The notes beneath the pieces were generated by a model, which was not told where the DNA came from, made no database searches, and saw nothing but the letters and a program-made list of their open reading frames with translations. 64,000 bases of DNA from Salinisphaeraceae bacterium (lineage in GTDB: Bacteria > Pseudomonadota > Gammaproteobacteria > Nevskiales > Salinisphaeraceae). The stretch lies in contig NYTH01000008.1 of NCBI GenBank assembly GCA_002683405.1, positions 54,040 to 118,039 of the forward strand, in the 5' to 3' direction. Positions 6,911-36,066 of this stretch are shown here, one piece after another (position 1 is the stretch's first letter; every line of letters begins with the position of its first letter). Made by a program: the position numbers and the translations under genes.

Positions 6911-6914
6911 GCCG

Positions 6915-10911: not shown

Positions 10912-11068
10912 GGTTCCAGGCGGGCGGCGCGCCCGTATTACGCGGTGATTCCCGGCGCCCCTCTGGCATCCGGTCGCGAGGGCCGGTCAGGGGCGTCATG
11001 GCGCCGGACTGTGGGCGCATTATCCATAGACCGCGCGTGGCCCGGCAAGTTGCTGAAAATCGTGCGAA

Positions 11069-12525: not shown

Positions 12526-12651
12526 GAACGACTGGGAGTAGGGCGGGCGGTGTCATCGCGAGGAGTTGACGCGGTTCAAGACTGTCCGGTCAGCATAGGC
12601 GTGGCCCGCGCGCTGCGACAACCGCGCCGGACCCTGCCGCCGCCGTCGGCC

Positions 12652-13710
<1,059 letters not shown>

Positions 13711-13954: not shown

Positions 13955-14242
13955 TTGAGTCTGAGCGAATCCGATGTGGCCAAGGTGGCCCAGCTCGCCA
14001 AGCTGAAGTTGAATGAGTCGCAGGTGCCTGAATATGCGGCAGAATTGTCGGGCATTCTCGAAATGGTCGAAACGCTGGATTCCGCCGAGACTGACGGCGT
14101 CACGCCCATGGCGCATCCGCTTGACCTGAGCGCCCGCCTGCGCGCCGATTCGGTGACCGAAACCGATCATCGCGACGCGTTCCAGGCCATCGCGCCCAAG
14201 GTGGAAGACGGCGTGTACCTCGTGCCGCGCGTCATCGAATAG
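13955..14242 (+). CDS. gatC: Asp/Glu-tRNA amidotransferase subunit C
   Basis: 95-aa product if translation starts at TTG 13955, which has an AGGAG SD at 13943-13947 (7-nt spacer). 'VAKVAQLAKLKLNESQ' is a typical GatC N-terminus. The 204-aa ORF from 13628 is an over-extension. Confidence 0.85.
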   Translation: MSLSESDVAKVAQLAKLKLNESQVPEYAAELSGILEMVETLDSAETDGVTPMAHPLDLSARLRADSVTETDHRDAFQAIAPKVEDGVYLVPRVIE

Positions 14243-14254
14243 CGGGTGGTAGCT

Positions 14255-15718: not shown

Positions 15719-17172
15719 GCACCGCCTGGGAGACGGTTATCGGGCTGGAGGTACACATCCAGTTGAATACGCAGAGCAAGATATTTTCCGGCTCGAGCAC
15801 GGCCTACGGCGCCGCGGCCAACAGCCAGGCCAGCGCGGTTGATCTGGGCATGCCCGGGGTGTTGCCGGTGATCAACGCCGAAGTCATCCGCAAGGCGGCG
15901 CTGTTCGGCCTGGCCATTGACGCGGCGGTGGCGCCGCAGTCGATTTTCGCGCGCAAGCACTATTTCTACCCGGACCTGCCCAAGGGCTATCAGATCAGTC
16001 AGTACGAGCTGCCGATCGTCTCCGGTGGGCATCTGGATGTGGAAACCGCGGCGCTGGGCAAGCGGCGTATCGGGATTACGCGGGCCCATCTGGAGGAAGA
16101 TGCCGGTAAATCGCTGCACGAGGATTATGCCGGGCAGACGGGCATCGACCTCAACCGCGCCGGCACACCGCTGATCGAGTGCGTATCCGAGCCCGAAATC
16201 GCGTCGGCGGCGGAAGCCGCTGCCTATGCGCGCAAGCTGCACGCATTGGTCTGCTATCTGGGCATCTGTGACGGCAACATGCAGGAGGGCTCGTTTCGCG
16301 TGGACGCCAATGTGTCCGTGCGACGCCGCGGCGAAACCACGTTCGGCACGCGCACCGAAACCAAGAACCTGAATTCCTTCCGCTTTCTGGAAAAGGCCAT
16401 CGAGTACGAAATCGAGCGCCAGATCGACGTGATCGAAGGCGGCGGCCAGATCGTGCAGGAAACCCGCCTGTACGACCCGGATACGGGCGAAACCCGCGCC
16501 ATGCGCAGCAAGGAAGAAGCCCACGACTACCGCTATTTCCCCGACCCCGATCTGCTCCCGGTGGTTATCGAGCCGGCGTTCCTGGACGAGCTGAAATCCG
16601 GTCTGCCCGAGCTGCCGGATGCGCGGCGCGCGCGGTTTGAACAGACCTTGGCGCTGGACGCCGATAGCGCGGCGCTACTGACGTCAACCCGCGCTACCGC
16701 AGACTATTTCGAGGCGGTACTCGCCTCGGCAGGCGGCGCAACGCCGGAGCGCGCGAGGCTGGCCGCCAACTGGATCAACGGCGAGCTGGCCGCGGCCCTC
16801 AATCGTGACGACCTGGCCATTCAGGCGTCACGCGTTGCGCCGGCGCAGCTGGCCGGCCTGCTGCTGCGGATCGAGGACAATACCGTGTCAGGCAACGCGG
16901 CCAAGTCCGTATTTGAAGGGCTGTGGCAAGGCGAGGCCGACGCGGCGGATGCCATCATCGAGGCCCGGGGTCTGAAGCAGATCACGGACAGCTCGGCCAT
17001 CGAGCAGTTCGTCGACGAAGTGATCGAGAGCAACCCCGAGCAGGTGGAGCAATACCGCAGCGGCAAGACCAAGGTGCTGGGCTTTCTGGTCGGCCAGGTG
17101 ATGAAGGCGTCGAAAGGCAAGGCCAAGCCGCAGGACGTCAGCCGGCTCATGCAGGAGAAGCTGGATACATGA
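15715..17172 (+). CDS. gatB: Asp/Glu-tRNA amidotransferase subunit B
   Basis: Starts [17 protein letters not shown], the canonical GatB N-terminus. '[10 protein letters not shown]' and a C-terminal YqeY-like tail are present. Confidence 0.95.
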
Positions 17173-18903: not shown

Positions 18904-19860
18904 TCAGGGGCGCCAGAGGGTTCGCCCTTCGATATACCGGACACCCTGATTCGTATTCACCGGGATCCGCCACGTGGCCACGGTCTTCTCGACCTGGCCA
19001 CCCGGTTTGCCGCTGGAAGGCTGGACTCTGGGGTCGGCCCAGCCGAATCCGCCGGCGGTCGAGATGATGGTCCAGCGTTCGGGCTTGTCGTCCGGCGCAC
19101 GGTAGGGCACCACGGTATCGACCGGGGCCGCCTGCTTCCAGGTTCGGCTGGCGCTGTTGACAATGGCCTTGCTCGGCAGGAAACGCAGGAATTTCTCGCC
19201 GTTGAGGCCATCGACCGTGAACTTGTCGTTGCCGCGGTTATGGATGAACAGGCCGGGGCGGGGGCCGGCCATCGGGTGAACCGTGACGGCTTCCATGTCC
19301 AGCGACTGTTTGTCGATGATCACTTCGTAGAGTCCATCCGGCGCCGGGGTATGGACGAAATCCCCGGTCAGGGCCGCGCGCGTGTTGCCCAGCTGCACTG
19401 GTATGGACCAGCGGCCCACGGGGCCGGCCGAGGATGACCCGGCCGCCTCGGGCACCCGCAGTCTCGTATCGAACCAGCCCCAGGTGGGCGCCTCGTTCAT
19501 CGGATGCCAGCGCGCGGGTCCGTGGGCGTTATTGGGCAGCGGCTGGTCATCGGCGTACCGGCTGAGGTGGAATGCCGGGCGGGCGTAGTTGGCCTTGACG
19601 TCCTGCGGACCGATGCTGAGAAACGGCTCGCCCTCGTTGTCCAGAATCAGCAGCGGGTCATTGGTCAGGTTGAATACCGTGATCTGCGGATGAACCGTCT
19701 GGCGCAATTCAACCAGAATGCCGTCCAGACTGGCGGGCACCGGGTCCAGATTGGGCCGCACGGTGTATTCGCTGCGATCCGCGGCGGCGACGGGCAGGCA
19801 GAGCAGTGCCAGCAGCAAACCGGCAAGCCTTGATTTCATTGAGGCGGAGGTGGACATCAT
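18904..19860 (-). CDS. Secreted protein of unknown function
   Basis: 318-aa ORF with a signal peptide ('MKSRLAGLLLALLCLPVAAA'), 16 nt downstream of purH. No family recognised. The start could instead be the internal MKS at 19839. Confidence 0.6.
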   Translation of the reverse strand: MMSTSASMKSRLAGLLLALLCLPVAAADRSEYTVRPNLDPVPASLDGILVELRQTVHPQITVFNLTNDPLLILDNEGEPFLSIGPQDVKANYARPAFHLSRYADDQPLPNNAHGPARWHPMNEAPTWGWFDTRLRVPEAAGSSSAGPVGRWSIPVQLGNTRAALTGDFVHTPAPDGLYEVIIDKQSLDMEAVTVHPMAGPRPGLFIHNRGNDKFTVDGLNGEKFLRFLPSKAIVNSASRTWKQAAPVDTVVPYRAPDDKPERWTIISTAGGFGWADPRVQPSSGKPGGQVEKTVATWRIPVNTNQGVRYIEGRTLWRP

Positions 19861-21532: not shown

Positions 21533-21802
21533 TCAGCCCTTGTCTAGACCGTATTTGCGGAGCTTCTTGCGCAGCGTGGCGCGATTGATGCCCAGCACGC
21601 AGGCCGCGTGCGACTGGTTGCCTTCGCTGTAGCTCAGCACCGATTCGAGAAGGGGCTTTTCCACCTGCTCTACAACCATACGGTACAGGTCGGTGGGTGG
21701 CTCGCTGCCGTTGAGCGCGACAAAGTAGCGATCCAGGCTGTCCCGCACGTGGTAACTCAATGGACGGGTGGCAGAGGAAGCATCCTTTTTCGACTCGGCC
21801 AT
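21533..21802 (-). CDS. fis: Nucleoid-associated DNA-binding protein Fis
   Basis: 89 aa. C-terminal HTH 'GNQSHAACVLGINRATLRKKLRKYGL' and 'LYRMVVEQVEKPLLESVL' are unmistakably Fis. Confidence 0.93.
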   Translation of the reverse strand: MAESKKDASSATRPLSYHVRDSLDRYFVALNGSEPPTDLYRMVVEQVEKPLLESVLSYSEGNQSHAACVLGINRATLRKKLRKYGLDKG

Positions 21803-21933: not shown

Positions 21934-21971
21934 GATGACCGGCGGACGGACATGCGCGCCCGCCGGTCATC
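21934..21971 (-). terminator. Strong hairpin (12-bp perfect stem, 14-nt loop) after the TonB-like gene; probable terminator or attenuator upstream of fis
   Basis: gatgaccggcgg (21934-21945) pairs perfectly with ccgccggtcatc (21960-21971). It begins 8 nt after the stop codon of the 21979-22920 gene. The downstream U-tract is weak (TATTT). Confidence 0.5.
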
Positions 21972-21978
21972 AGGCGAA

Positions 21979-22920
21979 TCAGGAGGGGAAGAACTTGATC
22001 GGGTAGTTGCCCGTCCAGACCGGCACGTTCTTCGCGCCGAACTTGAACAGCTTGACCCGATTGATGATCTTCGACTCAAGCTCGGAGTCGTTCAGCTCGC
22101 TGCTCACCACGCTGGCGCTGGTGACCTCGCCGGACGGTGCGATCGTCAAGCGCAGCACCACCGTGCCCTGAAGCGCCGGGTTGCTGCGCAGGGCGCGCTG
22201 GTACAGCGAGAAGAGCGACGACTTGTTGCGGTCGAAGACGATCTGGATTTCTTCGGTGGAGCGCGACGCGCTGCCGCCCGTGCCGCTGCTGCCGGTGCCG
22301 CCGGAAACGGCGCCACCGCCCGACGGCGCCTGCACCTGAGTCGTGCTGCGGCCGGCCAGTGCCGTGCTACCGCCCAGCTTGCCCGGGCTGCCCGCCTGAC
22401 TCTGAATGCCAGTACTCCCGGACGAGCCCGCCTTGGTCACCAGTCGCCGCTGGTTGACGGCTTGGGTCTGGCCGGCCGACAGGTCGCGGTTGGCGCTGAC
22501 CGACCGGGCCGCCTGATTGTCACGCAGCGACTGCAGATCGTCGGCAAACGCCAGTACGCCCGTGTCTTCCGCCTTCACCTTGGCCGCCTTGGGCGTCTGC
22601 TTCGGTGTGGGCTGCGGCTGCGGCTCGGGATTGGGGATCGGCTTTTCCGGCGGCTTTTCCGGCTCGGGTTGCGGTTCGGGCTCGGGCGGTGGCGGCGGGG
22701 GCGGCGGCTTCTGCCGCTCGATTACCAGCTTGGCCACCCGCTCCGGCAGTTCAGGTATTTCCTCTTCGGGTGCCATGAACAATGGCAGCAGGGGAACCAG
22801 AACACCGAATACCAGAATCGGCAGCAGGACGCCGAGAAGGATGTTGGAGAAGCGCTTGTCCGCTTGCTCATCAACGCCCCAGGACATCCCGAGCTGAGGT
22901 GCATAGGACACTGCGCTCAT
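21979..22920 (-). CDS. TonB-like energy-transducer protein with an AgmX/PglI-type C-terminal domain
   Basis: 313 aa with one N-terminal TM and a Pro-rich spacer (aa 71-110, 'KPPPPPPPPEPEPQPEPEKPPEKPIPNPEPQPQP'). The C-terminus 'LYQRALRSNPALQGTVVLRLTIAPSGEV...NYPIKFFPS' fits the TonB-C-like AgmX/PglI pattern. 4-nt overlap with the upstream exbD. Confidence 0.8.
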   Translation of the reverse strand: MSAVSYAPQLGMSWGVDEQADKRFSNILLGVLLPILVFGVLVPLLPLFMAPEEEIPELPERVAKLVIERQKPPPPPPPPEPEPQPEPEKPPEKPIPNPEPQPQPTPKQTPKAAKVKAEDTGVLAFADDLQSLRDNQAARSVSANRDLSAGQTQAVNQRRLVTKAGSSGSTGIQSQAGSPGKLGGSTALAGRSTTQVQAPSGGGAVSGGTGSSGTGGSASRSTEEIQIVFDRNKSSLFSLYQRALRSNPALQGTVVLRLTIAPSGEVTSASVVSSELNDSELESKIINRVKLFKFGAKNVPVWTGNYPIKFFPS

Positions 22921-23435
22921 ATTCCGCTCAACTGTTCGTCTTGCAACACGGCCAGGGAAATCTGTCCGTATTCCGCCTGGGTACAGGTCAGCATGACTTT
23001 CTTCACCAGGCTGAAGGGCAGGTTCTTGTCGGACATGATGGTGATCTCACCCAGGCCTTCCTCAGCCATTTCTTCCTCGGTCGGCGCAGTGATCCGCTCC
23101 GGCGTGTAGGCCTTGAGCGCCTGGGCGACCGCAGGCAGGAACTCGCCCTCCGCGTCGATGGCCTCGTTGATGCCCATCACGACATTGCCCTGCACCAGAA
23201 TATTGTTCCGGCCAAGCATGACCACGATCGACTCGCGCGCGGGGGCCTCGGCCGTGGACTCGGGCAGTTCAAGCTCCTGGGGATCCGGCAGCGTTTGCAC
23301 ATCGGACGAATTCACCAGCAGAAAGAACACCAGGATGGTGAAGATATCCATGAGGGATACCAGATTGAATCCTGCTCTGGATCGATTGCGGCGATGATGC
23401 CGCTGCATGCGTCGGGCGCGTTTGGACTCTTCCAT
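22917..23435 (-). CDS. exbD: ExbD/TolR-family protein (paralogue b, TM Asp conserved)
   Basis: 172 aa. The basic N-terminus and TM 'FNLVSLMDIFTILVFFLLV' carry the conserved Asp. Confidence 0.85.
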   Translation of the reverse strand: MEESKRARRMQRHHRRNRSRAGFNLVSLMDIFTILVFFLLVNSSDVQTLPDPQELELPESTAEAPARESIVVMLGRNNILVQGNVVMGINEAIDAEGEFLPAVAQALKAYTPERITAPTEEEMAEEGLGEITIMSDKNLPFSLVKKVMLTCTQAEYGQISLAVLQDEQLSGI

Positions 23436-23438
23436 GGT

Positions 23439-23942
23439 TCAGGCTCCCGGTGCGTCGCCCAGGGCGATTTCAGGAAACAATTCCGCCTGGATGGTTTCGC
23501 CCGCCTTGTTCGGGTCGGGCTGTTCGGTGGCACGCACCGCATCCATAACGTGTACCAGTACATCGTAGGGCGTGTCCGGCTCCAGCAGCACGCTGGCTTC
23601 GGTTACATCCTGGTTGGATGCCTTGATCTGCTCGAGAAGTTCCGTGAGCGAGGCGTAGTCGTACCCGTCCTCGGTGTTCTTGATGTCGGCGATGCGCGTC
23701 TGGCCATCGGCCACAATGAGGCCTTCCTTGCGGACGATGACTTCCAGACGCAGCTTCTCCTCGGGCTCTTCCGTCTGCTGCGATGCCGTGGGCAGCTGCA
23801 GCTCCAGAATGGCCATGCGTGAGAAAACCGCCGTAATCAGCAGAAACGGCACCAGTATCACCATGAGATTGAGAAACGCGGTGATATTCAGTTCTGCGGG
23901 ATCCCGGTCCCGCCGGGCCCGCCGTTGGCGAACGCGATTCAA
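23439..23942 (-). CDS. exbD: ExbD/TolR-family protein (paralogue a, TM Asp replaced by Asn)
   Basis: 167 aa. TM 'LNITAFLNLMVILVPFLLI' aligns with E. coli ExbD 'INVTPFIDVMLVLLIIF' and has N at the Asp25 position. ATGA overlap with exbB. Confidence 0.85.
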   Translation of the reverse strand: MNRVRQRRARRDRDPAELNITAFLNLMVILVPFLLITAVFSRMAILELQLPTASQQTEEPEEKLRLEVIVRKEGLIVADGQTRIADIKNTEDGYDYASLTELLEQIKASNQDVTEASVLLEPDTPYDVLVHVMDAVRATEQPDPNKAGETIQAELFPEIALGDAPGA

Positions 23943-24592
23943 GCCTCGCTCCTGTCCCGATCTTCGTTAGCAAAAATGATGTTGGTCGACCGCACGGTCG
24001 CCATTTCCAGGCTGTCGATGATGCTGGTGGTCTTGGACGTCAGCACCGCGTGCAGCAGCAGCAGCGGAATGGCCACCATCAGACCGAAGGCGGTGGTGTT
24101 CATGGCCACCGAGATACTGGCCGACAACAGATCGGCCTTTTCGGCCGGGTTGGCGTTGGCGACAGCCGTGAACGCCTGGATCAGACCGATGATGGTGCCC
24201 AGCAGGCCGAGCAGGGTGGCGATATTGGCAAAGGTCGCCAGATAGTGGGTGCGCTTCTCCAGCCGCGGCATCGTGTCCATGAGGCTTTCCTCCATGGCCA
24301 TTTCGATATCGTTGCGGCGGCGGCTGGTGCGAAAGCGATCCAGGCCCACGTTGAGCATCTGGCCGACTTCCGCCTTGGAATCCGCGGTGTTGGCGCGCGC
24401 ACGCTCGTAATCGCGATCGTTGAGGATCGGCGCGAGCTTCTTCCATTCGCGGCTGTTGCGCGAACGGGCCATGCTCAGATACATCCATCGTTCGATGCCG
24501 ATGGCCAGACCCACGCCGAACACCAGGGCGATGGGAAACATGAACGGGCCGCCATTCTGAAAGAAACTGACGACGGTGTTGTAGGCCTCCAT
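23939..24592 (-). CDS. exbB: MotA/TolQ/ExbB-family proton channel
   Basis: 217 aa with three TMs. 'LATFANIATLLGLLGTIIGLIQAF' and 'SVAMNTTAFGLMVAIPLLLLH'. AAGGAGAA SD lies 5 nt upstream of the ATG. Confidence 0.9.
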   Translation of the reverse strand: MEAYNTVVSFFQNGGPFMFPIALVFGVGLAIGIERWMYLSMARSRNSREWKKLAPILNDRDYERARANTADSKAEVGQMLNVGLDRFRTSRRRNDIEMAMEESLMDTMPRLEKRTHYLATFANIATLLGLLGTIIGLIQAFTAVANANPAEKADLLSASISVAMNTTAFGLMVAIPLLLLHAVLTSKTTSIIDSLEMATVRSTNIIFANEDRDRSEA

Positions 24593-24682
24593 TACATTCT
24601 CCTTTGACTACTTGACGCTTGCGACCCGGCCTGGATGCCGTGTCGCCATGCTGGGGTTCCCGGTGCGCCGGTTGCGGCGCGT

Positions 24683-24958
24683 TCAGGGTTGTCGGGTTTG
24701 CTCGTAATACCGCAGACGTCGTTCGAACACCTGCGGGTCAATCGGTTCCAGCGGCTCGTCCACGAGACGCGTCGGGCCCGTGCCGATTTCGCCGGGTTCA
24801 CTCTTTTTCCACGGCACGATGGTCAACCCCTTCGGCAGTTCCTGGTTGCCGAAGATGTTCGTGCCCTCGGGCGATGCGTCCTGGGTCTGGCCGATGGCCA
24901 GCGGCGCAAACAGCGCCAGACCCGCGACTACAAACGCCGTTCCAAGTCGGTTATCCAT
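24683..24958 (-). CDS. Small secreted protein of unknown function (91 aa)
   Basis: Signal peptide 'AFVVAGLALFAPLAIGQ'. Same strand and operon position between the TPR lipoprotein and exbB. Overlaps the end of the upstream gene by 31 nt. No family recognised. Confidence 0.5.
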   Translation of the reverse strand: MDNRLGTAFVVAGLALFAPLAIGQTQDASPEGTNIFGNQELPKGLTIVPWKKSEPGEIGTGPTRLVDEPLEPIDPQVFERRLRYYEQTRQP

Positions 24959-25449
24959 AGCGCGACTTCCTCGTCCGGTTCGCCGGACAGTTCCTGATAG
25001 CGTTGATAATGTTCCAGTGCGGCCGCCGGCTGCTGCAGATAGATGTCATACAGAATGCCCAGGTTCAAATGGGCATCCCGGCTGTCACTCTTATCGGCCA
25101 GTGCCGCCTTGTACTGTTGCTCGGCCTCGGAGAATCGACCGGTGCGGCGGTAGATTACACCCAGATTGTTGTGGGCGGCAGCCAGTCCGGGCGAGGCGTC
25201 CAGCAGAGCCGTGAGCATCTGCTCGGCACTCTCCAGATTACCCGCCTGAAGCTCGCCGAGCGCCGCCCTGAAACGGCGCTGGTCTTCCGCGCTGGCCGGT
25301 GTCGATGCCGAACTGCTGCCGGACGATTCGCCCTCGGCCGATGACTCGTCCGCCGCGACGGGCGCCTCGTCCTTCGAGGGGCTCGAGGCGCAGCCGCCCA
25401 GCAGCAGCGCCAGGGCAATCGCGAAACCGGCTGACTTAAAGCTGTTCAC
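24928..25449 (-). CDS. TPR-repeat lipoprotein
   Basis: GTG start at 25449 gives VNSFKSAGFAIALALLLGGCASS, with a lipobox. TPR consensus in 'AAAHNNLGVIYRRTGRFSEAEQQYKAAL...AHLNLGILYD'. The 312-aa ORF extension overlaps the upstream gene out of frame and was rejected. Confidence 0.7.
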   Translation of the reverse strand: MNSFKSAGFAIALALLLGGCASSPSKDEAPVAADESSAEGESSGSSSASTPASAEDQRRFRAALGELQAGNLESAEQMLTALLDASPGLAAAHNNLGVIYRRTGRFSEAEQQYKAALADKSDSRDAHLNLGILYDIYLQQPAAALEHYQRYQELSGEPDEEVALWITDLERRL

Positions 25450-28210
25450 TGATTCGTTCCGTCTTTGCGAAGCGAACGGGCAGCAGCTTGGCCAGTTCGG
25501 TCTGGCTCTTGCGTACCCACTCGTTGTAAATGCCGTCGGCGGCCCGGGCCATGTTGGCCTGGTGGATGTCGATGGCCTGTTCCTCGAAGGGGAAGGCCTG
25601 CTCTTCCAGCAGCACTTCGTACTGGGCGGCTTCTTCGGCATCCAGATTACCCGGCCGCGGCGATTCAAGCAGATCACGCGAGAAGCGGTAGTAGAGCTGG
25701 CCGGTGCGATAGGTGGCGGCCGTGGTGATGTCCGCGATGCCGTAATCCGCGGCCTTGCCGTAGGCCGCGAGTGCGTCCTCCAGGCGGGCCTTCTTGACCT
25801 GCAGCGTCTGCCGCAGGGGGTTGCCCAGTCGCGCGCGGACAAAGGCCTCACCGCTTTCCTCGGCAAATTTCAGCTGTGCCTGAGCCGCGAGCGTACGGCT
25901 GCGTTCACTGCGCTGCGAGCCGGCGCCGGCGTCCAGCTCGATCAGTTTCTCGCGCCAGAAGTCCGCCTTGTCCTCTTCGCCGGTTTTGCCGTAGAGCGCC
26001 ACCAGCTTGTCGGCGGTCTCGACCTGGGTGGGGAAGGCGATGTCGTAGTCGTAGAACAGCGTCTTGTAGGCATCCACGGCCTCGGCGGTCGTGCCGGTTT
26101 CGGCGATCAGTGTGGTGCTTTGCTCAGCGGCGGCCAGGCGCTGCCCGGCATCAATGTCCTGCTGCTTGCTGATCGCCGCGTATTCACGTGCCGCGGCCCG
26201 TTTGTCGCCGGTGTCCATGTACAGGGCGGCCAGCCGCCGGGTGGCTTCAGGCGCCAGCTTGTTCTGCGGATACTGGCTGCGGAAGCTGTTGAGCTGATTG
26301 ATCGCCTGCGGCTTGTCTTCCAGGCGAATACTGGCGGCGGCGGCGTCATATAGCGCGGTGGCGCGAATCTGCGCGGCCGGTTCGTTGCTGGCCGGGATCA
26401 GTTCCTGCAGGCGCATGAACTCGGCGCGGGCCTGGGCATCGTTTCCGGCCTCCAGCTGCGCTTCGCCCTGTCGGTAGACCGCGGCGGCGAGCCGTTCGCG
26501 CAGCGCCGGGCTGTTGTCGCCGGGTGCCAGCGCAATCAGCTCGAGCAGGCTCGCCTCGGCGGCGGCGTAGTCCTTCTGGTCTTCGGCCGTGGCCGCCAGA
26601 ATGCGCCAGCTGTCGGCAACTTGCGTGGGGGTGGCTGCTGGCTCGTGCGCGATGACCTGGCGGGCGATCTCGCTGGCACCGGTCAGATCCTCGGCGCGGT
26701 AGCGGTCTTCGGCCAGCAGCGCCAGGGCATTGGCGGCGTCGGGATGGGCCGGGAAGGTCTGCGCAAAGCGTAGCGTGGCCTGTTCGACCTGCTCGTCGGT
26801 CGCCACGTTCTCGGCGGCCTTGCGGCGGGCCAGCAGCGCGGCATAGGCGGCTTCGCCGGCCTTGTCGTGCTCGCCCATTTCGTAGGCGACCTGGTTGTAC
26901 TGCTGCGCGGCGTCGTCGAACCGGCCGGCCTCGAACAGGACTTCACCGCGCAGAAAAGCCGTCTGCGGGACGTCATCGGCCTCCGGAAAGATTTCGAGCG
27001 CGCGGGCGTACCACTCCGCGGCGACGTCGTAATCCTCCGGCTTCTTCGATTTCTGGGCAGCCGCGTGATAGAGCTTGGTGATCTCGTCAAGCCACTTGTC
27101 CAGCCGCTCGCGCACTTCCGGCACGTCCAGCGGATCCTGACCGAACCACGGCTTGCGATCGATGCCGTAATCCTTGACGAAGATTTCCTTGCGTTCGAGC
27201 GCCAGACTGGGGAAGCCGCCCTGTTCGAGGGCCGTGATGGCGCCCAGCTCGAAACGCTTGGACTCGGGATGCTCCGGGTTGCGCTCCGCGAAGGCGAGGG
27301 CCGTTTCGGAGGCGTCGGTGTAGCGCTCCTTCTCCAGATAATGGTCGAACAGGCGCTTGTGGAACAGGTATTCGAAGCTGCGTGATTTCGTCTGGTCGAC
27401 GTACTCGGCCGGAGTCAGTTCGCCGCTGAGCTGGGCAAAATTCAGGATGATGCCTCGCAGGCTGTCCTCGGCCAGCTCCGTATCGCCCTGACTCAGACCC
27501 GAGGTGTCCAGATCGCCTGATTCGCTGGGCTGGCGGTCGCCCAGCATCAGCCGCAGCACGCTGGTGAATTCGTTGAGCGATTCGCGGTTGTTGCTGAGCT
27601 TGTACTGCGACCAGCCCTGCTTGTATTTGGCGCTGCGGTAGAAGGGCGTGGTGTCGCCCTTCTTGATCAGCCACTCGTAGTCGCGGGCCGCGCCCTCGAA
27701 GTCGCCGTCCACGAACAGGGCCTCGGCGCGGCGAAAGCGCGCTTCGGGGGTGTAGCGCGAGGCGGGAAATTCCTGGATGAGCGAATTCAGCGCATCCCGC
27801 GCCACGTCCTGCTCGCCTGCCAGATCAGCCGCCTGCGCCAGGTTGTAAAGCACATTGGCGCGGTTGATGCTGACCTGCTCCTGGGCCAGCACCTCCTGAT
27901 AGAGCTGCACCACCTTGCGGGCGCTGGGCTTGGGGTCGGTGGCGTCGGCCGAGGCTTCCAGCTCGGCCTGGGCCAGCCTGAGCATGATGCGCACACGGGT
28001 CGCCGGGTCCTGTTCGCGCGTAAGTTCCATGAGGCGGCGGTAGTTGTCCAGCTGCACCGCCGGATCGACCGCAACCGGATCCGACTCCTCGATGACGATT
28101 TCGCGATCTTCCAGGCTTTCCAGGGTAGGGCCCTGCGACCAGGCGGGCACGGCGAGACAGCTCGCGAACAGCCCGGCGGTCGTGAAAACACAGCAGCGTG
28201 AGACTCTCAT
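25436..28210 (-). CDS. Large periplasmic TPR-repeat protein (924 aa)
   Basis: Signal peptide 'AGLFASCLAVPAWSQ'. Many TPR-like helical hairpins run along the whole length (e.g. 'YTPEARFRRAEALFVDGDFEGAARDYEWLI', 'AEWYARALEIFPE', 'LAPEATRRLAALYMDTGD'). Confidence 0.8.
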   Translation of the reverse strand: MRVSRCCVFTTAGLFASCLAVPAWSQGPTLESLEDREIVIEESDPVAVDPAVQLDNYRRLMELTREQDPATRVRIMLRLAQAELEASADATDPKPSARKVVQLYQEVLAQEQVSINRANVLYNLAQAADLAGEQDVARDALNSLIQEFPASRYTPEARFRRAEALFVDGDFEGAARDYEWLIKKGDTTPFYRSAKYKQGWSQYKLSNNRESLNEFTSVLRLMLGDRQPSESGDLDTSGLSQGDTELAEDSLRGIILNFAQLSGELTPAEYVDQTKSRSFEYLFHKRLFDHYLEKERYTDASETALAFAERNPEHPESKRFELGAITALEQGGFPSLALERKEIFVKDYGIDRKPWFGQDPLDVPEVRERLDKWLDEITKLYHAAAQKSKKPEDYDVAAEWYARALEIFPEADDVPQTAFLRGEVLFEAGRFDDAAQQYNQVAYEMGEHDKAGEAAYAALLARRKAAENVATDEQVEQATLRFAQTFPAHPDAANALALLAEDRYRAEDLTGASEIARQVIAHEPAATPTQVADSWRILAATAEDQKDYAAAEASLLELIALAPGDNSPALRERLAAAVYRQGEAQLEAGNDAQARAEFMRLQELIPASNEPAAQIRATALYDAAAASIRLEDKPQAINQLNSFRSQYPQNKLAPEATRRLAALYMDTGDKRAAAREYAAISKQQDIDAGQRLAAAEQSTTLIAETGTTAEAVDAYKTLFYDYDIAFPTQVETADKLVALYGKTGEEDKADFWREKLIELDAGAGSQRSERSRTLAAQAQLKFAEESGEAFVRARLGNPLRQTLQVKKARLEDALAAYGKAADYGIADITTAATYRTGQLYYRFSRDLLESPRPGNLDAEEAAQYEVLLEEQAFPFEEQAIDIHQANMARAADGIYNEWVRKSQTELAKLLPVRFAKTERISEQL

Positions 28211-28237
28211 TGTCTTCGTTCTAGCCTGTAAGTCGCT

Positions 28238-29911
28238 TTACTCGATCAACTGCGCCGACCCCAGCCTCACCTGCGACAGGTAGGCATTGGTGTGGCGCTT
28301 GTAGTCGTTTGCGTAATAAAGGGCGCGCTGGCGCAGGTAGTCGCTGGCATGACCGATCACGGCGTCCAGGCGGGACCTCATGTTGGCCAGCCGTTCTCCA
28401 TTGGCCTTGATCACAGCGTCCTGCTGTCCCAACACGGCAGGCGCAGTGTATCCCGACTGGGCATACGCTGCGACCTGATTGTCGTGACGGGTCTTCAGTG
28501 TGTCGAGCATTTGCAGGTTGTTCAGGACGGATTGCCGCAGCACGGTGAGATCCTGAAGGTGGCGGGCCACGGCCTGGAAGCGCTCGTCTTCGACCACGGC
28601 CTCATGATACGGCGCGCTGACCCCACTATAAAGATCGACGTGCTGCGCCAGCCAGGCCTGGGCGGCTGCTTCGCTGGGCGGCAGGCCCTTGCCGGTGCCG
28701 GTTTCGGCCTCGTCGAGTTGTTCGATGGTCCGTTCGACCTGCTGGCGCTGCGGCTCCAGCTGCGCAATGGCGGTCTGGTAATACTTGCTGGCGCTGCGCG
28801 GCGCGCCGATCTTGGAGTAGGCATAGGGCACCATGGCCAGGCCTTCCTGCACCGCCAGGGCCTGCGGGTTGCGCTGGCCCAGTTCCAGCCAGGGGATCAG
28901 GGCCCGCTTGTAGCGCTCTACCTCGGTCTCTGCGCCCTTCTTGCGGGCAAACTTGTCGGTCTCGCGAAAGCGCCGCGCCGGGCCGCAGGACTTGCGCGGA
29001 ATGCGGCGCAGCACCGGCAGCCCTTCGGGCAGCAGACGGGCCGCGTCTTCGCGGCATTTTATCTCGGTGGTGACGGTGCGCTCCTGCGCGCCGCCGTCTG
29101 GCGCCAGTTCGGCCCAGCCCAGGCCCAGCAGCGCCTTATCGGAATAGGGGCCGTCCAGCCGGACGCGCTGGAACAGCGCCCTTGCCGTGGCGCCCTGGCC
29201 GATTTCCAGATAGCCGAATGCCAGCACCAGGTTGGCCTTGTCGCGCAGCGCGCGTTCTTCATCCGTTGCGGCCTCCATGGTCGCGACGCCGTCCAGCTCG
29301 CCGGCGCCCTGTTTGAGCAGGCCGGACCGCACCAGCGCAACGCCCAGGTTGAAGCGGGCGAACGGATCCTGATGGCCGTGCGAGAGCCACTGCCGCAACT
29401 GGGTGGCGGCATCCTCCGCGCGCCCCTGCGCCAGCAGCAGCCGTGCTTCCATGGGGACCCGCTGGCCGTAGTACTCGGCGGGTACCGGGCCGTAGATGCT
29501 GTCGAGGGCGGCCTGCGCCTGCGCGTAGTCGCCGCGAATTTCCCAGGCCTGGGCCAGCTCGAACCAGAGGCGGTTACGCAGTTTCGGGTCTACCTCGGGC
29601 AGCAGGTGTCGTCGATAGCGGGTGGTGGCATCTTCGAGCAGGCCGAGTGCCGCGGCCGCCCGGGCCAGGGCGATCTGGATGTCGCGCTGATCGCCCCCGT
29701 CAAGTGCCGTACGCGATGCGTGTTCGGCGGCCGTGAGCAGACTGAACGGGTCAGCGGACTGCGCCAGAAAGCGCAGATGACGGACCTCGAGCTGCTCGGC
29801 GCTGTTGCGCGTGGGCGGCTCGTAATCCGGTGTTTGCGCGACTGCCTGAGCCGGCGTGATCAGGCACAGACCGAAGGCGAGCGGAACCGCGAGTAACCGG
29901 ATGCCCAGCAT
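28238..29911 (-). CDS. Secreted helical-repeat protein, paralogue of 30696-32243
   Basis: 557 aa with signal peptide 'LAFGLCLITPAQAVA'. Shares blocks with the 515-aa gene upstream, such as 'RFNLGVALV...', 'ANLVLAFGYL...FQRVRLDGPYSDKALLGLGWAEL' and a Cys pair. Confidence 0.7.
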   Translation of the reverse strand: MLGIRLLAVPLAFGLCLITPAQAVAQTPDYEPPTRNSAEQLEVRHLRFLAQSADPFSLLTAAEHASRTALDGGDQRDIQIALARAAAALGLLEDATTRYRRHLLPEVDPKLRNRLWFELAQAWEIRGDYAQAQAALDSIYGPVPAEYYGQRVPMEARLLLAQGRAEDAATQLRQWLSHGHQDPFARFNLGVALVRSGLLKQGAGELDGVATMEAATDEERALRDKANLVLAFGYLEIGQGATARALFQRVRLDGPYSDKALLGLGWAELAPDGGAQERTVTTEIKCREDAARLLPEGLPVLRRIPRKSCGPARRFRETDKFARKKGAETEVERYKRALIPWLELGQRNPQALAVQEGLAMVPYAYSKIGAPRSASKYYQTAIAQLEPQRQQVERTIEQLDEAETGTGKGLPPSEAAAQAWLAQHVDLYSGVSAPYHEAVVEDERFQAVARHLQDLTVLRQSVLNNLQMLDTLKTRHDNQVAAYAQSGYTAPAVLGQQDAVIKANGERLANMRSRLDAVIGHASDYLRQRALYYANDYKRHTNAYLSQVRLGSAQLIE

Positions 29912-29914
29912 GAC

Positions 29915-30457
29915 TCAGCTCCGATCGGCCAGGCTCTTGGCCTGGAAACCGTTGTTGTCGGGCTGGGCGGTCCACTGTAATTCAAGCACCTGCGGACCAG
30001 CCGCTTTTTCCACCTGGTAGGCAGCCTGCCGCTCGCCGAGGCTGTCGCGCGCCTGGATGCCGACGCGATGCGTGCCCGCCGGCAGCGCGCCGGTATAGAT
30101 CTTGTGGGCGCCGCCATCCAGCAGCGCCTGTGATTGGGTCTCGTTGTAAGTGTGCGAAGCGACCACCGTGCCGTTGACCGAGATCTGCAGGGAATACAGC
30201 CGGCCACGCGCCGTCGCGGGGCCGCTGACAAAGATGGTCCAGCGCTGCGCCTCGGGGTAGAGCACGTCCTGCTCGAGCATCTGCATATCCGCCTCGAGCG
30301 AAAGCAGATCGGATTTGACCGACCGTATCTGGCGCTCCAGCAGCTCGAAGCCGTCCCCCTCTGCAGGCGGAGCGGCGGGCTGGGCAAACGTGGTGGTGGC
30401 CATGACCAGGGCGCTGGCAATCCATGGCAGTCGGTTGCGCATCATGCGGCTCATCAT
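29915..30457 (-). CDS. Secreted protein of unknown function (coiled-coil N-terminus plus beta-rich domain)
   Basis: 180 aa with signal peptide 'ASALVMATTTFAQ'. Heptad-like 'LLERQIRSVKSDLLSLEADMQMLEQD'. Its stop is 3 nt before the start of the next gene. Confidence 0.6.
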   Translation of the reverse strand: MMSRMMRNRLPWIASALVMATTTFAQPAAPPAEGDGFELLERQIRSVKSDLLSLEADMQMLEQDVLYPEAQRWTIFVSGPATARGRLYSLQISVNGTVVASHTYNETQSQALLDGGAHKIYTGALPAGTHRVGIQARDSLGERQAAYQVEKAAGPQVLELQWTAQPDNNGFQAKSLADRS

Positions 30458-30486
30458 CCCGTCTTGGGTAACCTCACTGTAATCGG

Positions 30487-30529
30487 CAGATATTGCCTAA
30501 ACCTTGTAGGTGGATTCCGACAATATCTG
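30487..30529. promoter_or_regulatory. Perfect 9-bp inverted repeat (cagatattg N25 caatatctg) in the only sizeable intergenic gap of the cluster
   Basis: Seen directly at 30487-30495 and 30521-30529. It lies about 30-70 nt upstream of the 29915-30457 start, in a visibly AT-richer 238-bp spacer. It could be an operator or a 5'-UTR stem. Confidence 0.3.
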
Positions 30530-30695
30530 TAAGTTCGGCCGGCTTCGCCCCTGCGGAGGCCCGAGGCCCGGAGTATAACTGCAGGGCCCGGTTCTCTCCA
30601 CGGCAAAAACAACCAATATTCGGCGGCTTAGCGCTTGCTGATAAGGTGTTTTCTACTCGCCGGACCGTATCCGGATTCCAAGCCGGACGGGGCCG

Positions 30696-32243
30696 CTAGC
30701 GTGACGCGGGGGCTTGGAGTTCGGCTAGGAACAGGCGAGCCATGGTTTCGTAGCGTTTCAGATGGCTCATTCGGGTCATGCGCTGGTTCTGATCGAGGAC
30801 AGTCATCCGGTCATCCAGGGCAGCGCGCAGGGCGGCGACCTCGGTCCTGAGCGCGCGGCGGCGTCGCTCGACCGACGCCAGGCTAGGGACCTGCGCGCCG
30901 CTGTGCTGCGCTCGCATCGCATACCAGCGCAGCAGACCGCGTGACGCGCCGTCCGCGGACGTGCCCCCGTTCGCGTTTCGCGCGCGCGCCAGAGCGGCGC
31001 CGATCTGGTCGAGCAGCGGGGTGTTCACGGGCTGGTCCAGCCGGTTGGCTGCGTCCTCAAGCCAGGTCCGCGCCTGAAGCAGTTGCTGCTGTGCCGGTGT
31101 GGCCGGCGTCTGGATGGCGCCGCCGTGATCGGTCTGCAGTCTGTCGATCGCGGCGGTCAGGCGCTCAACGGCAGTGCGGGCCGCTTGCTGAGCGGCGCGG
31201 CGGTCGCCCGCCCGGGCCAGGGCATGCGGCAGGTTGGCCAGCGCTTCGGCCACCGCCGGATCACGGGCGTCCCCCTCGCTGGCCGTTTGCCAGAGCACGA
31301 CGGCTCGCCGGTAACCGGTGCGGGCGTCGGCGTAGCCTTCGAGCCGGCCGAGTCGCGGCGTATCATCCTGCGCGGGACTGCGAACCGTGCACAGCTGACG
31401 CGACGTGCTGTGCAGGGCGCCGGCCTGCGTCCACAGCGCCGGATCCACCGCCTCGCACTCGCGTGTTTCGACGGCGGTGAGCGGCTGCTCACCCTGGTCG
31501 AGCCGGAATTCAGCCCAGCCCAGCGCCAGCAGGGCGCGGGGCGCCAGCGGTGAGGCCAGCCGCACGCGGCGCAGCACCTCGGCGGCGGCGGCATGGCGCG
31601 CCTGATCGAGCAGCCAGAAGCCGAGCATGACGTTGGCCTGATCCGCCAGCAGGCGGCTCGCCTCGTTCTCACCCGCGGCAGTGCCCAGGCTGTTCAACTC
31701 GGCAGCGCCATGGGCGCCAGCACCGGCGCCCAGCCAGGCCACCCCGAGGTTGTAGCGCTGCACGCCCGCCAGCCGCGACTGCTGCCGGGCGCTGGCCAGC
31801 GGCAGGGCGGCGTCGTCGTACTGACGCAGCCGCATGGCGGTGCGGCTGAGCAGCTCGTCCCGCTTCAGCGTGCGGGCACGGTCGCCGTCGCCGCGAAGTG
31901 ATTCGAGCAGCGTTTGCGCCTGGGCGTAGCGGGCCTGTTCGTACAGCCGCTCGGCCGCCGTCAGCGCCAGCCGAACGCGCACGTCAGGCGGGCGGACTTT
32001 GTCCAGCAGCGCGGCTGCCTCGTCCGGTCGCCCGGCCAGGAGCCAGCCGTAGGCCGAAACCACCGGATCATCCGTCAGGGCAGGCAGGGCATCCCAGTCG
32101 CCGGTCAGCGCGGCGTACCGTGCCTGGGCCCGCGTCAGCGCGGTCTTTTGCGCCTGGATATCCTCGGGTTTCTGCCACTGGGCGTGGCTGACGCCGCAGA
32201 ACAGCGCCGCCGTGAGCAGCAGTGCGAGACGCCCTCGGAACAT
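30696..32243 (-). CDS. Secreted helical-repeat protein, paralogue of 28238-29911
   Basis: 515 aa with signal peptide 'LLLTAALFCGVSHAQ'. Its ATG lies 1 nt after the prmA stop. Shared blocks with the 557-aa paralogue support it as a real gene despite the Ala/Arg-rich composition. Confidence 0.65.
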   Translation of the reverse strand: MFRGRLALLLTAALFCGVSHAQWQKPEDIQAQKTALTRAQARYAALTGDWDALPALTDDPVVSAYGWLLAGRPDEAAALLDKVRPPDVRVRLALTAAERLYEQARYAQAQTLLESLRGDGDRARTLKRDELLSRTAMRLRQYDDAALPLASARQQSRLAGVQRYNLGVAWLGAGAGAHGAAELNSLGTAAGENEASRLLADQANVMLGFWLLDQARHAAAAEVLRRVRLASPLAPRALLALGWAEFRLDQGEQPLTAVETRECEAVDPALWTQAGALHSTSRQLCTVRSPAQDDTPRLGRLEGYADARTGYRRAVVLWQTASEGDARDPAVAEALANLPHALARAGDRRAAQQAARTAVERLTAAIDRLQTDHGGAIQTPATPAQQQLLQARTWLEDAANRLDQPVNTPLLDQIGAALARARNANGGTSADGASRGLLRWYAMRAQHSGAQVPSLASVERRRRALRTEVAALRAALDDRMTVLDQNQRMTRMSHLKRYETMARLFLAELQAPASR

Positions 32244-32244
32244 G

Positions 32245-33129
32245 TCAAAGGCGCACGGCCGTCAGGCAGCTCCAGCCTTCCTGCCGAGCGGCCGGGTCGA
32301 ACCTGAACGCCGCTTCGTAGGCCTGTTTTACCGCCTGCTCCTGACGTTCAAGCAGACCGGAGAGAATCAATCGGCCGCCCGGTCTGACCCGCTCGGTCAG
32401 TGCCTCTGCCAGCTCGATGAGCGGGGCAGCGAGGATATTCGCCAGCACGCAATCTGCGGTCTGCAGCGGTGTGTCGTCCGGGTCCAGGGGCGCCATGCGG
32501 TCACCCACCAGGTTGTGCGCGCCGTTTTCCAGCGTGGCTTTCATGGCCTGCGGATCGATATCGAAGTAGAGTGCGCGTTCGGCGCCAAGCTTGAGGGCCG
32601 CGATGGCCAGAATGCCCGAGCCGCAGCCGTAGTCGATGACCTGCCGCTGCGCCGGCGGATTTTTCGACAGCGCATGCAGGCACAGCGCGGTCGTGGGGTG
32701 GGTGCCCGTGCCGAAGGCCATGCCCGGCTCCATGTAGATCACGGCCGCGTCGGCGACATCCACCTGCCGGCCCTTGGGGCAGACCCAAAGCCTCTCGCCG
32801 AACTGCATCGGGTGGTAGTGGTCCGTCCAGGCGCGTATCCAGTCTCTGTCCTCGATCAGCCGCGACTGCAGCGCCACGTCGGCGTCGAGCATGTCCTGCA
32901 GGCCCTGCACGAGCGAATCCGTGTCGGCCGTGGCGTGGAACAGCCCCTGAACGTGGGTTTGTGCCCAGACCGGACCGGCACCGGGTGCGGGCTCTACCAG
33001 CAGTTCGTCACCCCCGTCCACCAGCGTGATCGCCAGTGCACCGGCGGCTTCCAGCGCGGCCTCGGCCAGCGCCGGATGACCGCCGCTGATCGTCAGTTCG
33101 AGCCATGCGGCCGGCTCGGCCATGCTCAA
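32245..33129 (-). CDS. prmA: Ribosomal protein L11 methyltransferase
   Basis: 294 aa with '[14 protein letters not shown]' and the SAM motif '[15 protein letters not shown]'. 4-nt overlap with accC. Confidence 0.93.
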
Positions 33130-35544: not shown

Positions 35545-36066
35545 TTACCGCTCGTCAAGCCGTGGTTCGATCCACGCGCGCAGGTCGACGGCCTTGAGCT
35601 CGCCGCTGTGCGTGGCCAGGATGCGCCCATCCCGGCCGACCAGGGCCGAGAAGGGGAGCAGCGAGTTGCCGCCATAGGCGTCCTGCACCTTGGCGACCCC
35701 CATCGCGTCCACCAGAACGGGATAATTGATTCCCATCTCCGCGGCGTAAGCCCGCACGGGCGCCGGGTCATCCAGCGCGAGTCCGAGCACCTGCAGCCCC
35801 CGCTCGGCATAGCGGTCCTGGAATTCGACCAGCAGCGGGATTTCCTCGCGGCAGGGCTTGCACCAGGTTGCCCAGAAGTTGACGAGCAGCAGCTTGCCGT
35901 CCCATTCATCGATTGACCGGGGTTGTCCGGCCATGTCGGGCAGGGTGAAGGCCGGACGCCGGCTGTCGACGGGGCCGGCCGGGCTGGCGCCCAGCCACAG
36001 GGCGGTCATGACCCCACCGGCAATGCCCGCCAGACCCAATAACGCAAGCGTCAGCCGGAATTTCAT
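35545..36066 (-). CDS. TlpA/ResA-like periplasmic thiol:disulfide oxidoreductase
   Basis: 173 aa with a signal/anchor and the thioredoxin motif 'NFWATWCKPCREEIP'. ATGA overlap with dsbD. Confidence 0.85.
   Translation of the reverse strand: MKFRLTLALLGLAGIAGGVMTALWLGASPAGPVDSRRPAFTLPDMAGQPRSIDEWDGKLLLVNFWATWCKPCREEIPLLVEFQDRYAERGLQVLGLALDDPAPVRAYAAEMGINYPVLVDAMGVAKVQDAYGGNSLLPFSALVGRDGRILATHSGELKAVDLRAWIEPRLDER

Follow-up and report, generated by a model that had tools for sequence, protein, structure and literature searches.

A conserved envelope gene cluster in a marine Salinisphaeraceae bacterium as a probable stand-alone core complex of the Agl/Glt type

What does the ancestral core of the Myxococcus Agl/Glt machinery do in bacteria that do not glide? 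This question, open since 2011, is raised again by a 64,000-nucleotide (nt) stretch of DNA from a Salinisphaeraceae bacterium (GenBank assembly GCA_002683405.1, contig NYTH01000008.1, positions 54,040 to 118,039), hereafter the window. Positions 21979-32243 of the window hold ten co-oriented minus-strand genes, which encode one TolQ/ExbB-like protein, two TolR/ExbD-like proteins and one TonB-like protein together with secreted proteins, a long tetratricopeptide repeat (TPR) protein and a TPR lipoprotein. A first-pass annotation, made from the sequence alone, had proposed that these genes form an envelope machine driven by proton-motive force, with the parts list of the Myxococcus AglR/AglQ/AglS-Glt machine and distinct from Ton and Tol-Pal systems. 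The evidence set out below makes it probable that the locus is a stand-alone Agl/Glt-type 'core complex', a form that does not serve motility and is ancestral to the machinery for gliding and spore-coat formation in Myxococcus. This type of machine has already been described; new here are a ninth conserved member, a duplicate of GltC, an Asn-bearing motor subunit, natural gene fusions, and redoxin and ApbE neighbours.

Luciano et al. (2011; PMC3169522) described a set of Group B genes (gltC, gltD, gltE, gltG, aglR, aglQ and aglS) which, with one additional gene lacking myxobacterial homologues, form a single-locus 'core complex' of unknown function in several Gammaproteobacteria, the betaproteobacterium Methylibium, Geobacter and Fibrobacter. 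Their Table S2 lists Cellvibrio, Hahella, Marinobacter, Saccharophagus, Shewanella frigidimarina, Teredinibacter and Thioalkalivibrio; the host family of the window, Salinisphaeraceae, lay outside that survey. The gammaproteobacterial products in their Table S3 measure 550-692 amino acids (aa) for GltC, 933-1016 for GltD, 162-263 for GltE, 217-245 for AglR, 170-188 for AglQ, 162-185 for AglS and 321-334 for GltG; in each of the gammaproteobacterial clusters the locus tags pass over one number between GltE and AglR. The window products of 557, 924, ~175, 91, 217, 167, 172 and 313 aa come in the same order, the small gene included, and eight genes (GltC-GltD-GltE-small gene-AglR-AglQ-AglS-GltG) agree with the published core in order and size. 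The first-pass annotation had mentioned a reduced Agl/Glt core in some gamma- and betaproteobacteria, and the 2011 study bears this out. Wartel et al. (2013) later regarded the core as a stand-alone machinery of many gammaproteobacteria, possibly a 'basal transport machinery'.

One published member of the core could be connected to the window by direct homology. The 924-aa protein is 33% identical over its full length to ABC29394.1 of Hahella chejuensis KCTC 2396 (P0212, 963 aa; BLASTP, E 7e-139), which is one of the best 150 matches of the 924-aa family profile and scores 921.8 bits with it. P0212, equated by organism and length, is HCH_02602, the homologue of GltD (MXAN_4870) in Table S3 of Luciano et al. 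(PMC3169522). The lipoprotein of the window is in turn 33.6% identical to HCH_02603, a GltE homologue listed by the same authors. The Hahella locus (L083) also carries, in the same order, homologues of the 180-aa protein (30%), the GltC-like protein, the GltE-like protein (34%) and the 91-aa protein (38%), showing that the TPR and secreted proteins of the window co-occur with published Glt homologues. The parts-list match drawn in the first-pass annotation is thus upheld by order, sizes, domains and homology to HCH_02602. The literature, searched with locus tags and with organism names combined with Agl/Glt terms, yielded no later functional study of a gammaproteobacterial core complex, and Glt goes unmentioned in a 2025 survey of how TolA and TonB evolved.

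The distribution of the cluster was examined in a scan of GTDB species genomes, in which at least 539 species carry a relative of the 924-aa protein. The 80 best-matching loci from these at least 539 species were analysed; they belong to Salinisphaeraceae, Steroidobacteraceae, Woeseiaceae, Thiodiazotropha/Sedimenticolaceae and Acidiferrobacteraceae. A profile search with the 924-aa family gave 2929 clusters at 50% identity (E <= 1e-30), and the family is far larger than the 2011 report suggested. The order 180-GltC-GltD-GltE-91-AglR-AglQ-AglS-GltG recurs on one strand in essentially all of the 80 loci whose contig is long enough (tblastn and clustering of open reading frames, ORFs), i.e., the neighbourhood tabulation called for in the first-pass annotation returns a nine-gene order conserved in about 80 gammaproteobacterial genomes. 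This recurring co-oriented order shows that the ORFs of the cluster are genes rather than chance ORFs.

While the window and the published core complex agree in these eight genes, we note three differences. First, the window has a second GltC paralogue of 515 aa. The paralogy of the 515- and 557-aa proteins, claimed in the first-pass annotation, is borne out by BLASTP (30% identity over 319 aa, E 8e-27). Across the 80 loci, the best match of the 515-aa protein is the single GltC-like gene, and Salinisphaera sp. PC39 (L004) alone has both copies. Since a separate gene occurs only in Salinisphaera, the 515-aa gene is a Salinisphaeraceae-specific GltC duplicate. Second, about 80 genomes share the 180-aa gene at the upstream end, which stands outside the listed core genes. 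In 78 of 82 loci it is the gene just upstream of the GltC-like one; the 515-aa gene being a lineage-specific duplicate, the 180-aa protein is therefore the ninth conserved member of the cluster, one that is not listed in Luciano Table S3. The unit of ten genes assumed earlier has to be amended accordingly: all ten are present, whereas the conserved unit comprises nine, with the duplicate set apart by 238 nt. Third, the first TolR-like subunit of the window has Asn in place of the channel Asp.

The motor proteins were assigned with Pfam and NCBIfam models. The 217-aa protein matches Pfam MotA_ExbB at 100.7 bits, and an LGLLGT motif is invariant in its family. However, it falls below the equivalog cutoffs of TolQ (64.4 vs. 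221 bits), ExbB (TIGR02797, 47.6 vs. 206) and ExbB2 (TIGR02805, 37.7 vs. 135). It is equidistant from Escherichia coli TolQ and ExbB (45.1 bits each), and the solved TolQ and ExbB structures are likewise equally distant from it, with E about 1e-6. The 167- and 172-aa proteins match Pfam ExbD at 62.4 and 55.6 bits, respectively; with the TolR equivalog they reach 38.6 and 20.9 bits against a cutoff of 127, and the ExbD equivalogs are missed as well (NF008429, 19.4 vs. 216; ExbD_2, TIGR02804, 27.7 vs. 123).

The two ExbD-family proteins are distinguished by the channel residue of their membrane helix. In an alignment with E. coli TolR and ExbD, Asn25 of the 167-aa subunit stands opposite TolR Asp23 and ExbD Asp25, and Asp30 of the 172-aa subunit aligns with the essential membrane-helix Asp of TolR/ExbD. 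Of 66 sequences of the first TolR-like subunit (65 orthologues and the window copy), 37 have Asp at this position and 29 have Asn; the second has Asp at the membrane-helix column in 65 of 65 aligned sequences. Part of the family evidently tolerates the loss of one of the two channel aspartates, and proton coupling in the Asn-bearing subclade presumably rests on the second TolR-like subunit alone.

The 313-aa protein has the layout of a TonB/TolA-type transducer: a short N-terminus leads into a single membrane helix, which is followed by a Pro-rich spacer, a Gly/Ser-rich linker and a C-terminal domain. The first-pass annotation had placed this last domain with the AgmX/PglI type rather than with canonical TonB, and the profile scores agree. 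NF033768 (AgmX/PglI C-terminal domain) gives 66.5 bits against a cutoff of 40 and is matched by all 32 scanned orthologues at E <= 0.001. Pfam TonB_C stays below its cutoff (23.6 vs. 24.6), and TIGR01352 passes (31.6 vs. 27.1) with half the AgmX/PglI score. Partial matches to the equivalog models of GltG and GltJ were also found (E 3.5e-11 and 1.4e-10). A Pfam scan gave no match to the FHA domain in this protein, and only ~24 residues precede the membrane helix on the cytoplasmic side. The transducer thus lacks an FHA domain and almost any cytoplasmic part, which suggests that it makes no link to a cytoplasmic platform. A sequence search returned no solved homologue.

These scores bear on the reading of the cluster as an accessory Ton system, in which ExbB-ExbD1-ExbD2-TonB would energise receptors encoded elsewhere and the TPR proteins would be TtpD-like accessories as in Vibrio. 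Ton systems with two ExbD genes exist, e.g., Xanthomonas exbD1/exbD2, and the Vibrio TonB2 system consists of TtpB, TtpC (a large MotA/ExbB-family protein), a single ExbD and TtpD. The window shares with such systems the ExbB, ExbD and TonB-type domains and a TPR protein, and its transducer passes TIGR01352 and has a TonB-like Pro-rich spacer. In addition, a TonB-dependent receptor follows 1 kb downstream in L012, one of the related loci, and cellodextrin uptake was proposed for a similar cluster by the authors of a Fibrobacter proteome study (PMC6851124). However, L012 is the only one of the 80 loci with such a receptor next to the cluster, and none was called in the 64-kb window. The ExbB, ExbB2, ExbD and ExbD_2 equivalog cutoffs are missed three- to tenfold. 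No TtpC-like or TtpB-like gene is found at the cluster, which encodes only one MotA_ExbB protein (217 aa) and two ExbD proteins; the window differs from Vibrio TonB2 in this respect, in the want of a linked receptor and in its scores with ExbB2 (38 vs. 135 bits) and ExbD_2 (28 vs. 123 bits). Moreover, residues 1-55 of the window transducer are free of His, and its membrane helix therefore lacks the His of an SHLS motif; across 63 family members His is merely scattered, with 9 of them carrying one where the predicted helix meets the periplasm (position 48). The five periplasmic or lipoprotein partners of the motor are strictly co-conserved and are not needed by Ton systems. The Ton reading is therefore very unlikely.

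Tol-Pal offers a closer comparison. A Tol-Pal-like paralogue would be a system that uses proton-motive force to tether or stabilise the outer membrane, e.g., at division or under stress, with no cargo transport; GltG would then correspond to TolA, GltD to CpoB/YbgF and the TPR lipoprotein to Pal. The window and Tol-Pal have in common a proton-motive-force motor family of the 5:2 type, a transducer that spans the membrane once and continues into a long periplasmic linker, TPR modules of the CpoB/YbgF type and an outer-membrane lipoprotein partner, here indicated by a lipobox. Among NCBIfam models, those of TolQ and TolR give the motor proteins their highest scores, the YbgF/CpoB cutoff is passed by the 924-aa protein, and JGI names many of its homologues 'TolA-binding protein'. 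A modelling paper on Myxococcus itself likens AglR5QS-GltG to TolQ5R2-TolA (PMC11761067). However, the motor proteins fall well short of the equivalog cutoffs of TolQ (64 vs. 221 bits) and TolR (39 vs. 127 bits). TolB, a Pal-type OmpA-like peptidoglycan-binding domain and YbgC are absent from the cluster and its conserved flanks, and E. coli TolB, Pal and TolA gave no match in the window or in the related loci. The window also differs in having two different TolR-like subunits and a transducer C-terminal domain of the AgmX/PglI type, and several copies of the cluster per genome have been described (PMC3169522), which is unusual for Tol-Pal. We regard this reading as unlikely, though less so than the Ton reading.

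Judged by its sequences, then, the cluster is not a canonical Ton, TonB2 or Tol-Pal system. This accords with the first-pass annotation, which had found the usual explanations inadequate and had seen no TonB-dependent receptor, siderophore gene, TolB or Pal in the cluster; none of these was called anywhere in the window.

The remaining proteins are the secreted, periplasmic and lipoprotein partners of the motor. The largest is the 924-aa protein, with four to five YbgF/CpoB-type TPR modules (TIGR02795, 99.8 bits vs. a cutoff of 90.1); these modules are a domain resemblance, not orthology. Its AlphaFold2 (AF2) model is an all-helical solenoid of 41 helices (mean predicted local confidence, pLDDT, 89.4), in agreement with the published description of GltD, and a fold search of the model against the PDB gave generic TPR scaffold or solenoid matches only. 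TPR families were also detected in the lipoprotein by Pfam and NCBIfam models. This protein had been called a TPR lipoprotein before, and its lipobox Cys is indeed kept in 74 of 76 orthologues; the lipobox LLGGC followed by Ala predicts anchoring in the outer membrane.

All 80 loci have the GltC-like gene; it directly precedes the GltD-like gene, as the GltC homologues of Luciano Table S3 do, and by analogy its 557-aa product may be an outer-membrane-proximal adaptor. Natural fusions of about 1500-1550 aa, with a GltC-like N-terminal and a GltD-like C-terminal half, were found as well; P0173 was checked by BLASTP, and such fusions argue that the two proteins work as one physical unit. Four more candidate fusions (P0176, P0185, P0205 and P0230) are suggested by their length and the position of the GltD-like match. 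The family has a median length of 631 aa, which the window copy (557 aa) does not reach; missing from it is a conserved stretch around residue 498, where the alignment columns L-E-L-G-R-W-P occur in >85% of homologues. The Cys pairs of the two GltC-like proteins of the window are not conserved in the family. The 515-aa duplicate has a signal peptide as read from its sequence.

The two small secreted proteins have no reported myxobacterial homologues. The 180-aa protein, described in the first-pass annotation as a coiled-coil/beta protein, is modelled by AF2 (pLDDT 74.7) with a signal peptide, a long helix of 34 residues (residues 33-66) and an eight-strand beta-sandwich, which fits that description. 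A Foldseek search of the model against the PDB gave only generic immunoglobulin- or transthyretin-like matches (E > 2e-3); the protein has no Pfam or NCBIfam match, and a Pfam scan of 16 family members returned nothing meaningful. Its family nevertheless counts at least 7821 proteins. Several NCBI records of metagenome-assembled genomes name its homologues (P0298, P0308, P0309, P0378, P0397, P0410 and P0412) 'AraC family transcriptional regulator', almost certainly an annotation error, since the protein consists of a signal peptide, a helix and a beta-sandwich with no helix-turn-helix domain. The 91-aa gene is present in 73-75 loci and sits in the slot after gltE that is held by gltF in myxobacteria. 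Its product has no Pfam or NCBIfam family match, and its family shares a motif of roughly 55 residues, TG..ELPKV.YIVPWK..D.GDL.G.P.N.LLDE.L.P.DR..F.R...YY.

How would these parts work together? Gene content, conservation, orthology to a single published member, domain types and the Asp/Asn state are established by the sequences; stoichiometry, contacts and output can be proposed by comparison with the Tol and Ton systems and with a published AlphaFold model of the machine in Myxococcus. In the Myxococcus model, AglR5-AglQ-AglS binds the membrane helix of GltG at the inner membrane, the GltG linker lies in a crevice of GltD close to which the C-terminal domain is placed, the C-terminus of GltD carries GltE, and the connection from GltD to the outer membrane is made by GltC (PMC11761067). 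By analogy, a pentamer of the 217-aa TolQ/ExbB-like protein would enclose a heterodimer of the two different TolR/ExbD-like subunits and use the proton-motive force, with the second TolR-like subunit as the only one to retain a protonatable Asp in this lineage. The motor would drive the membrane helix of the 313-aa TonB/TolA-like transducer, whose Pro-rich and Gly/Ser-rich linker would span the periplasm and whose AgmX/PglI-type C-terminal domain would dock on the 924-aa GltD-like TPR solenoid. The solenoid would be held under the outer membrane by the GltE-like TPR lipoprotein and one or two GltC-like adaptors (557 and 515 aa), and the 180- and 91-aa secreted subunits, specific to the non-myxobacterial version, would join the same assembly. 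The motor would then pull or rotate the periplasmic TPR shaft. Its output may be mechanical work at the inner face of the outer membrane, i.e., moving, positioning or releasing envelope or surface material, and would be neither substrate import nor motility.

A functional gliding machine of the Myxococcus type has to be weighed as well. The window shares with the Myxococcus Agl-Glt and Agl-Nfs machines a TolQ-like subunit with two different TolR-like subunits, a TonB-like transducer with an AgmX/PglI C-terminal domain, and the long TPR scaffold GltD, the TPR lipoprotein GltE and the helical adaptor GltC. However, the cluster is without the parts added in Myxococcales, namely the barrels GltA/GltB/GltH, GltK, CglB, GltF, GltI, GltJ, AglZ and the FHA domain of GltG. 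It encodes no beta-barrel or adhesin gene as judged from its ORFs and Pfam, with no sequence-level search made for GltA/B/H/K. The window also lacks the cytoplasmic platform (GltI, GltJ, AglZ and the MglA link), and its transducer has only ~24 cytoplasmic residues. Its GltG has no FHA domain, and its GltD is ~300 aa shorter. All genes of the window cluster lie in one locus, whereas those of Myxococcus are spread over three. The core genes were, moreover, reported not to be sufficient for motility (Luciano et al., PMC3169522). We consider gliding by this cluster extremely unlikely.

For the output of a non-motility core, a lead comes from Fibrobacter. Its FSU_2397/2398 TPR proteins and FSU_2400-2403 (ExbB/ExbD/ExbD/TonB), encoded in the same order, are up-regulated on cellulose, and the TPR protein co-purifies with an OmpA protein in outer-membrane vesicles, together with cellulases and fibro-slime proteins (PMC6851124).

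Several points weigh against the assignment to the Agl/Glt core, or limit what it explains. The placement in the Agl/Glt clade draws on one Hahella anchor, on synteny and on the NCBIfam models for GltG, GltJ and AgmX/PglI. The profile evidence for GltE is not specific: the lipoprotein has GltE as its best NCBIfam model, but at 49 bits (cutoff 225), and over the whole family the PilW and Tgl models reach similar scores; by position, the lipoprotein is orthologous to HCH_02603. In Myxococcus, the D28N substitution of AglQ abolishes both proton conductance and function; the Asn in the first TolR-like subunit of the window is the state of that mutant, and thus the motor here may work differently. 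The cluster encodes no outer-membrane beta-barrel that could be the partner of the GltC-like adaptor. Finally, the equation of FSU_2397-2403 with Fisuc_1892-1897 of Luciano et al., through which the Fibrobacter lead is connected to the core, is an inference from identical gene order in the same strain.

Beyond the assignment of this locus, we suggest, as a tentative and still doubtful proposal, that the gammaproteobacterial version is a distinct, very widespread envelope system of nine to ten genes with its own parts (the 180- and 91-aa subunits; often a co-transcribed TlpA-like thiol reductase and a neighbouring ApbE; a single-Asp heterodimeric stator plug in one large subclade), and that Gammaproteobacteria may thus have a third major class of Tol/Ton-like force transducer, one that works on the outer membrane from its inner face. 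Hundreds of species carry the system, among them members of abundant lineages of sediments and symbionts (Woeseiaceae, Steroidobacteraceae and Thiodiazotropha). Its role matters for understanding how a simpler envelope motor gave rise to a machine for motility and spore-coat formation, a question that the comparative data sharpen and do not answer. Cultivable, genetically tractable carriers (Hahella, Marinobacter, Cellvibrio and Salinisphaera) open it to experiment.

The features of the locus are listed in Table 1. The ten ORFs were confirmed at the positions given in the first-pass annotation, and the same ten genes were called by an independent gene caller on an identical TARA Oceans metagenome contig. 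The G+C content of the window is 63-69%.

Table 1. Coordinates of the ten genes and the flanking non-coding features, in window positions
Feature	Position	Strand	Basis or remark
515-aa secreted helical-repeat protein	30696..32243	-	extra paralogue of GltC-like gene
intergenic gap, 238 nt, with one promoter-like site (30600-30572)	30458..30695	-	coordinates and consensus scan
180-aa secreted protein, conserved ninth member	29915..30457	-	signal peptide, AF2 model, synteny
557-aa secreted helical/TPR protein, GltC-like	28238..29911	-	position before GltD-like gene
924-aa periplasmic TPR solenoid, GltD-like	25436..28210	-	homology to HCH_02602, TPR domains
TPR lipoprotein of ~173-179 aa, GltE-like	24928..25467	-	lipobox, similarity to HCH_02603
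91-aa secreted protein, 'additional gene' of core complex	24683..24958	-	position and conserved motif
217-aa MotA/TolQ/ExbB-family proton-channel subunit, AglR position	23939..24592	-	Pfam MotA_ExbB
167-aa ExbD/TolR-family subunit, AglQ position	23439..23942	-	Pfam ExbD
172-aa ExbD/TolR-family subunit, AglS position	22917..23435	-	Pfam ExbD
313-aa TonB/TolA-type force transducer, GltG-like	21979..22920	-	NF033768
terminator-like hairpin, 15-bp stem with 11 G-C pairs, then T-rich tail	21934..21971	-	sequence scan

The genes are tightly spaced for the most part. The 515-aa gene starts 1 nt after the prmA stop codon and is followed by the 238-nt gap; 3 nt separate the 180- and 557-aa genes, and 27 nt the 557- and 924-aa genes. 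The 924-aa gene overlaps the lipoprotein gene by 14 nt (173-aa start) or 32 nt (179-aa start), the lipoprotein gene overlaps the 91-aa gene by 31 nt, and a gap of 90 nt precedes the ExbB gene. The ExbB gene overlaps the first ExbD gene by 4 nt, the two ExbD genes are 3 nt apart, and the second overlaps the TonB-like gene by 4 nt. Of the spacing given in the first-pass annotation, the 4-nt overlaps, the 3-nt gaps and the 14- and 31-nt overlaps stand, whereas the gaps of 238, 90 and 27 nt had gone unmentioned. The 238-nt gap is a possible start of the conserved nine-gene unit; the promoter-like site within it is a weak consensus match, which is no proof of function. The terminator-like hairpin, which starts 8 nt past the last stop codon and before fis, marks the end of the unit.

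The cluster is flanked by cutA-dsbD-redoxin-aroQ-accB-accC-prmA upstream and by fis and purH downstream. It fills exactly the interval between prmA (32245-33129, minus strand) and fis (21533-21802, minus strand), and Salinisphaera sp. PC39 has the same prmA-cluster-purH arrangement. In E. coli and Pseudomonas, this interval is occupied by dusB, co-transcribed with fis; no dusB was called across the 64-kb window.

The most frequent neighbour in the other genomes is a periplasmic redoxin of the TlpA/AhpC type with a signal peptide, which lies directly upstream of the 180-aa gene in 66-69 of the 80 loci. ApbE (FAD:protein FMN transferase) is adjacent in 31 of 80. Example coordinates for these redoxin/ApbE neighbours are 6475-6981 in L005, 7038-7538 and 5710-6738 in L012, and 16641-17741 in L049. 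The window has no redoxin or ApbE beside the cluster; a distant redoxin (35545-36066, 29-34% identity) lies by dsbD, 3.3 kb upstream. Conserved Cys residues that could be redoxin targets are absent from the periplasmic proteins except for two. One is Cys151 of the second TolR-like subunit, the single periplasmic Cys of the 172-aa protein, kept in 65 of 66 orthologues. The other is position 269 in the transducer C-terminal domain, which is Cys in 36 of 63 orthologues and Ala in the window. A link between the redoxin and this second Cys was considered and dropped, as Cys 269 is not tied to the presence of an adjacent redoxin: loci with a linked redoxin have Cys in 31 cases and Ala in 18.

Further genes precede the cluster in particular lineages. 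In 35-38 loci, mostly of Steroidobacteraceae, three co-oriented upstream genes encode proteins of ~400-475 aa (weak PSD2 match), ~826 aa (Laminin_G_3) and ~535 aa (no family match); this block stands ahead of the redoxin in L005 (352-5917) and ahead of ApbE in L043 (1069-6361). In Hahella (L083, 1339-7393), PD40/HZS_alpha, SH3 and small beta-barrel genes lie ahead of the redoxin, and genes of the DUF4266 and DUF3570 families lie between the redoxin and the 180-aa homologue. DUF3570/DUF4266 proteins were rejected as a general outer-membrane partner, being present in only 2-3 of the 80 loci. None of the extra upstream genes of Steroidobacteraceae or Hahella is found beside the cluster in the window. 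Such lineage-specific blocks may be add-on modules of the kind that Luciano et al. proposed for the evolution of the machine.

Rod-shape and elongasome genes (dacA, rlpA-like, mltB-like, rodA, mrdA, mreD, mreC and mreB) occupy positions 4859-13680 of the window, 8-17 kb downstream of the cluster, and gatCAB lies at 13955-17172. The Myxococcus Agl-Glt machine is reportedly linked in function to MreB. In Fibrobacter succinogenes, mreB and mreC (FSU_2406 and FSU_2407) lie three genes past the similar cluster. The nearness of the mre genes may be a coincidence. Directly downstream of purH, a 318-aa minus-strand ORF (18904-19860) with no Pfam match is also called as a gene on the TARA contig.

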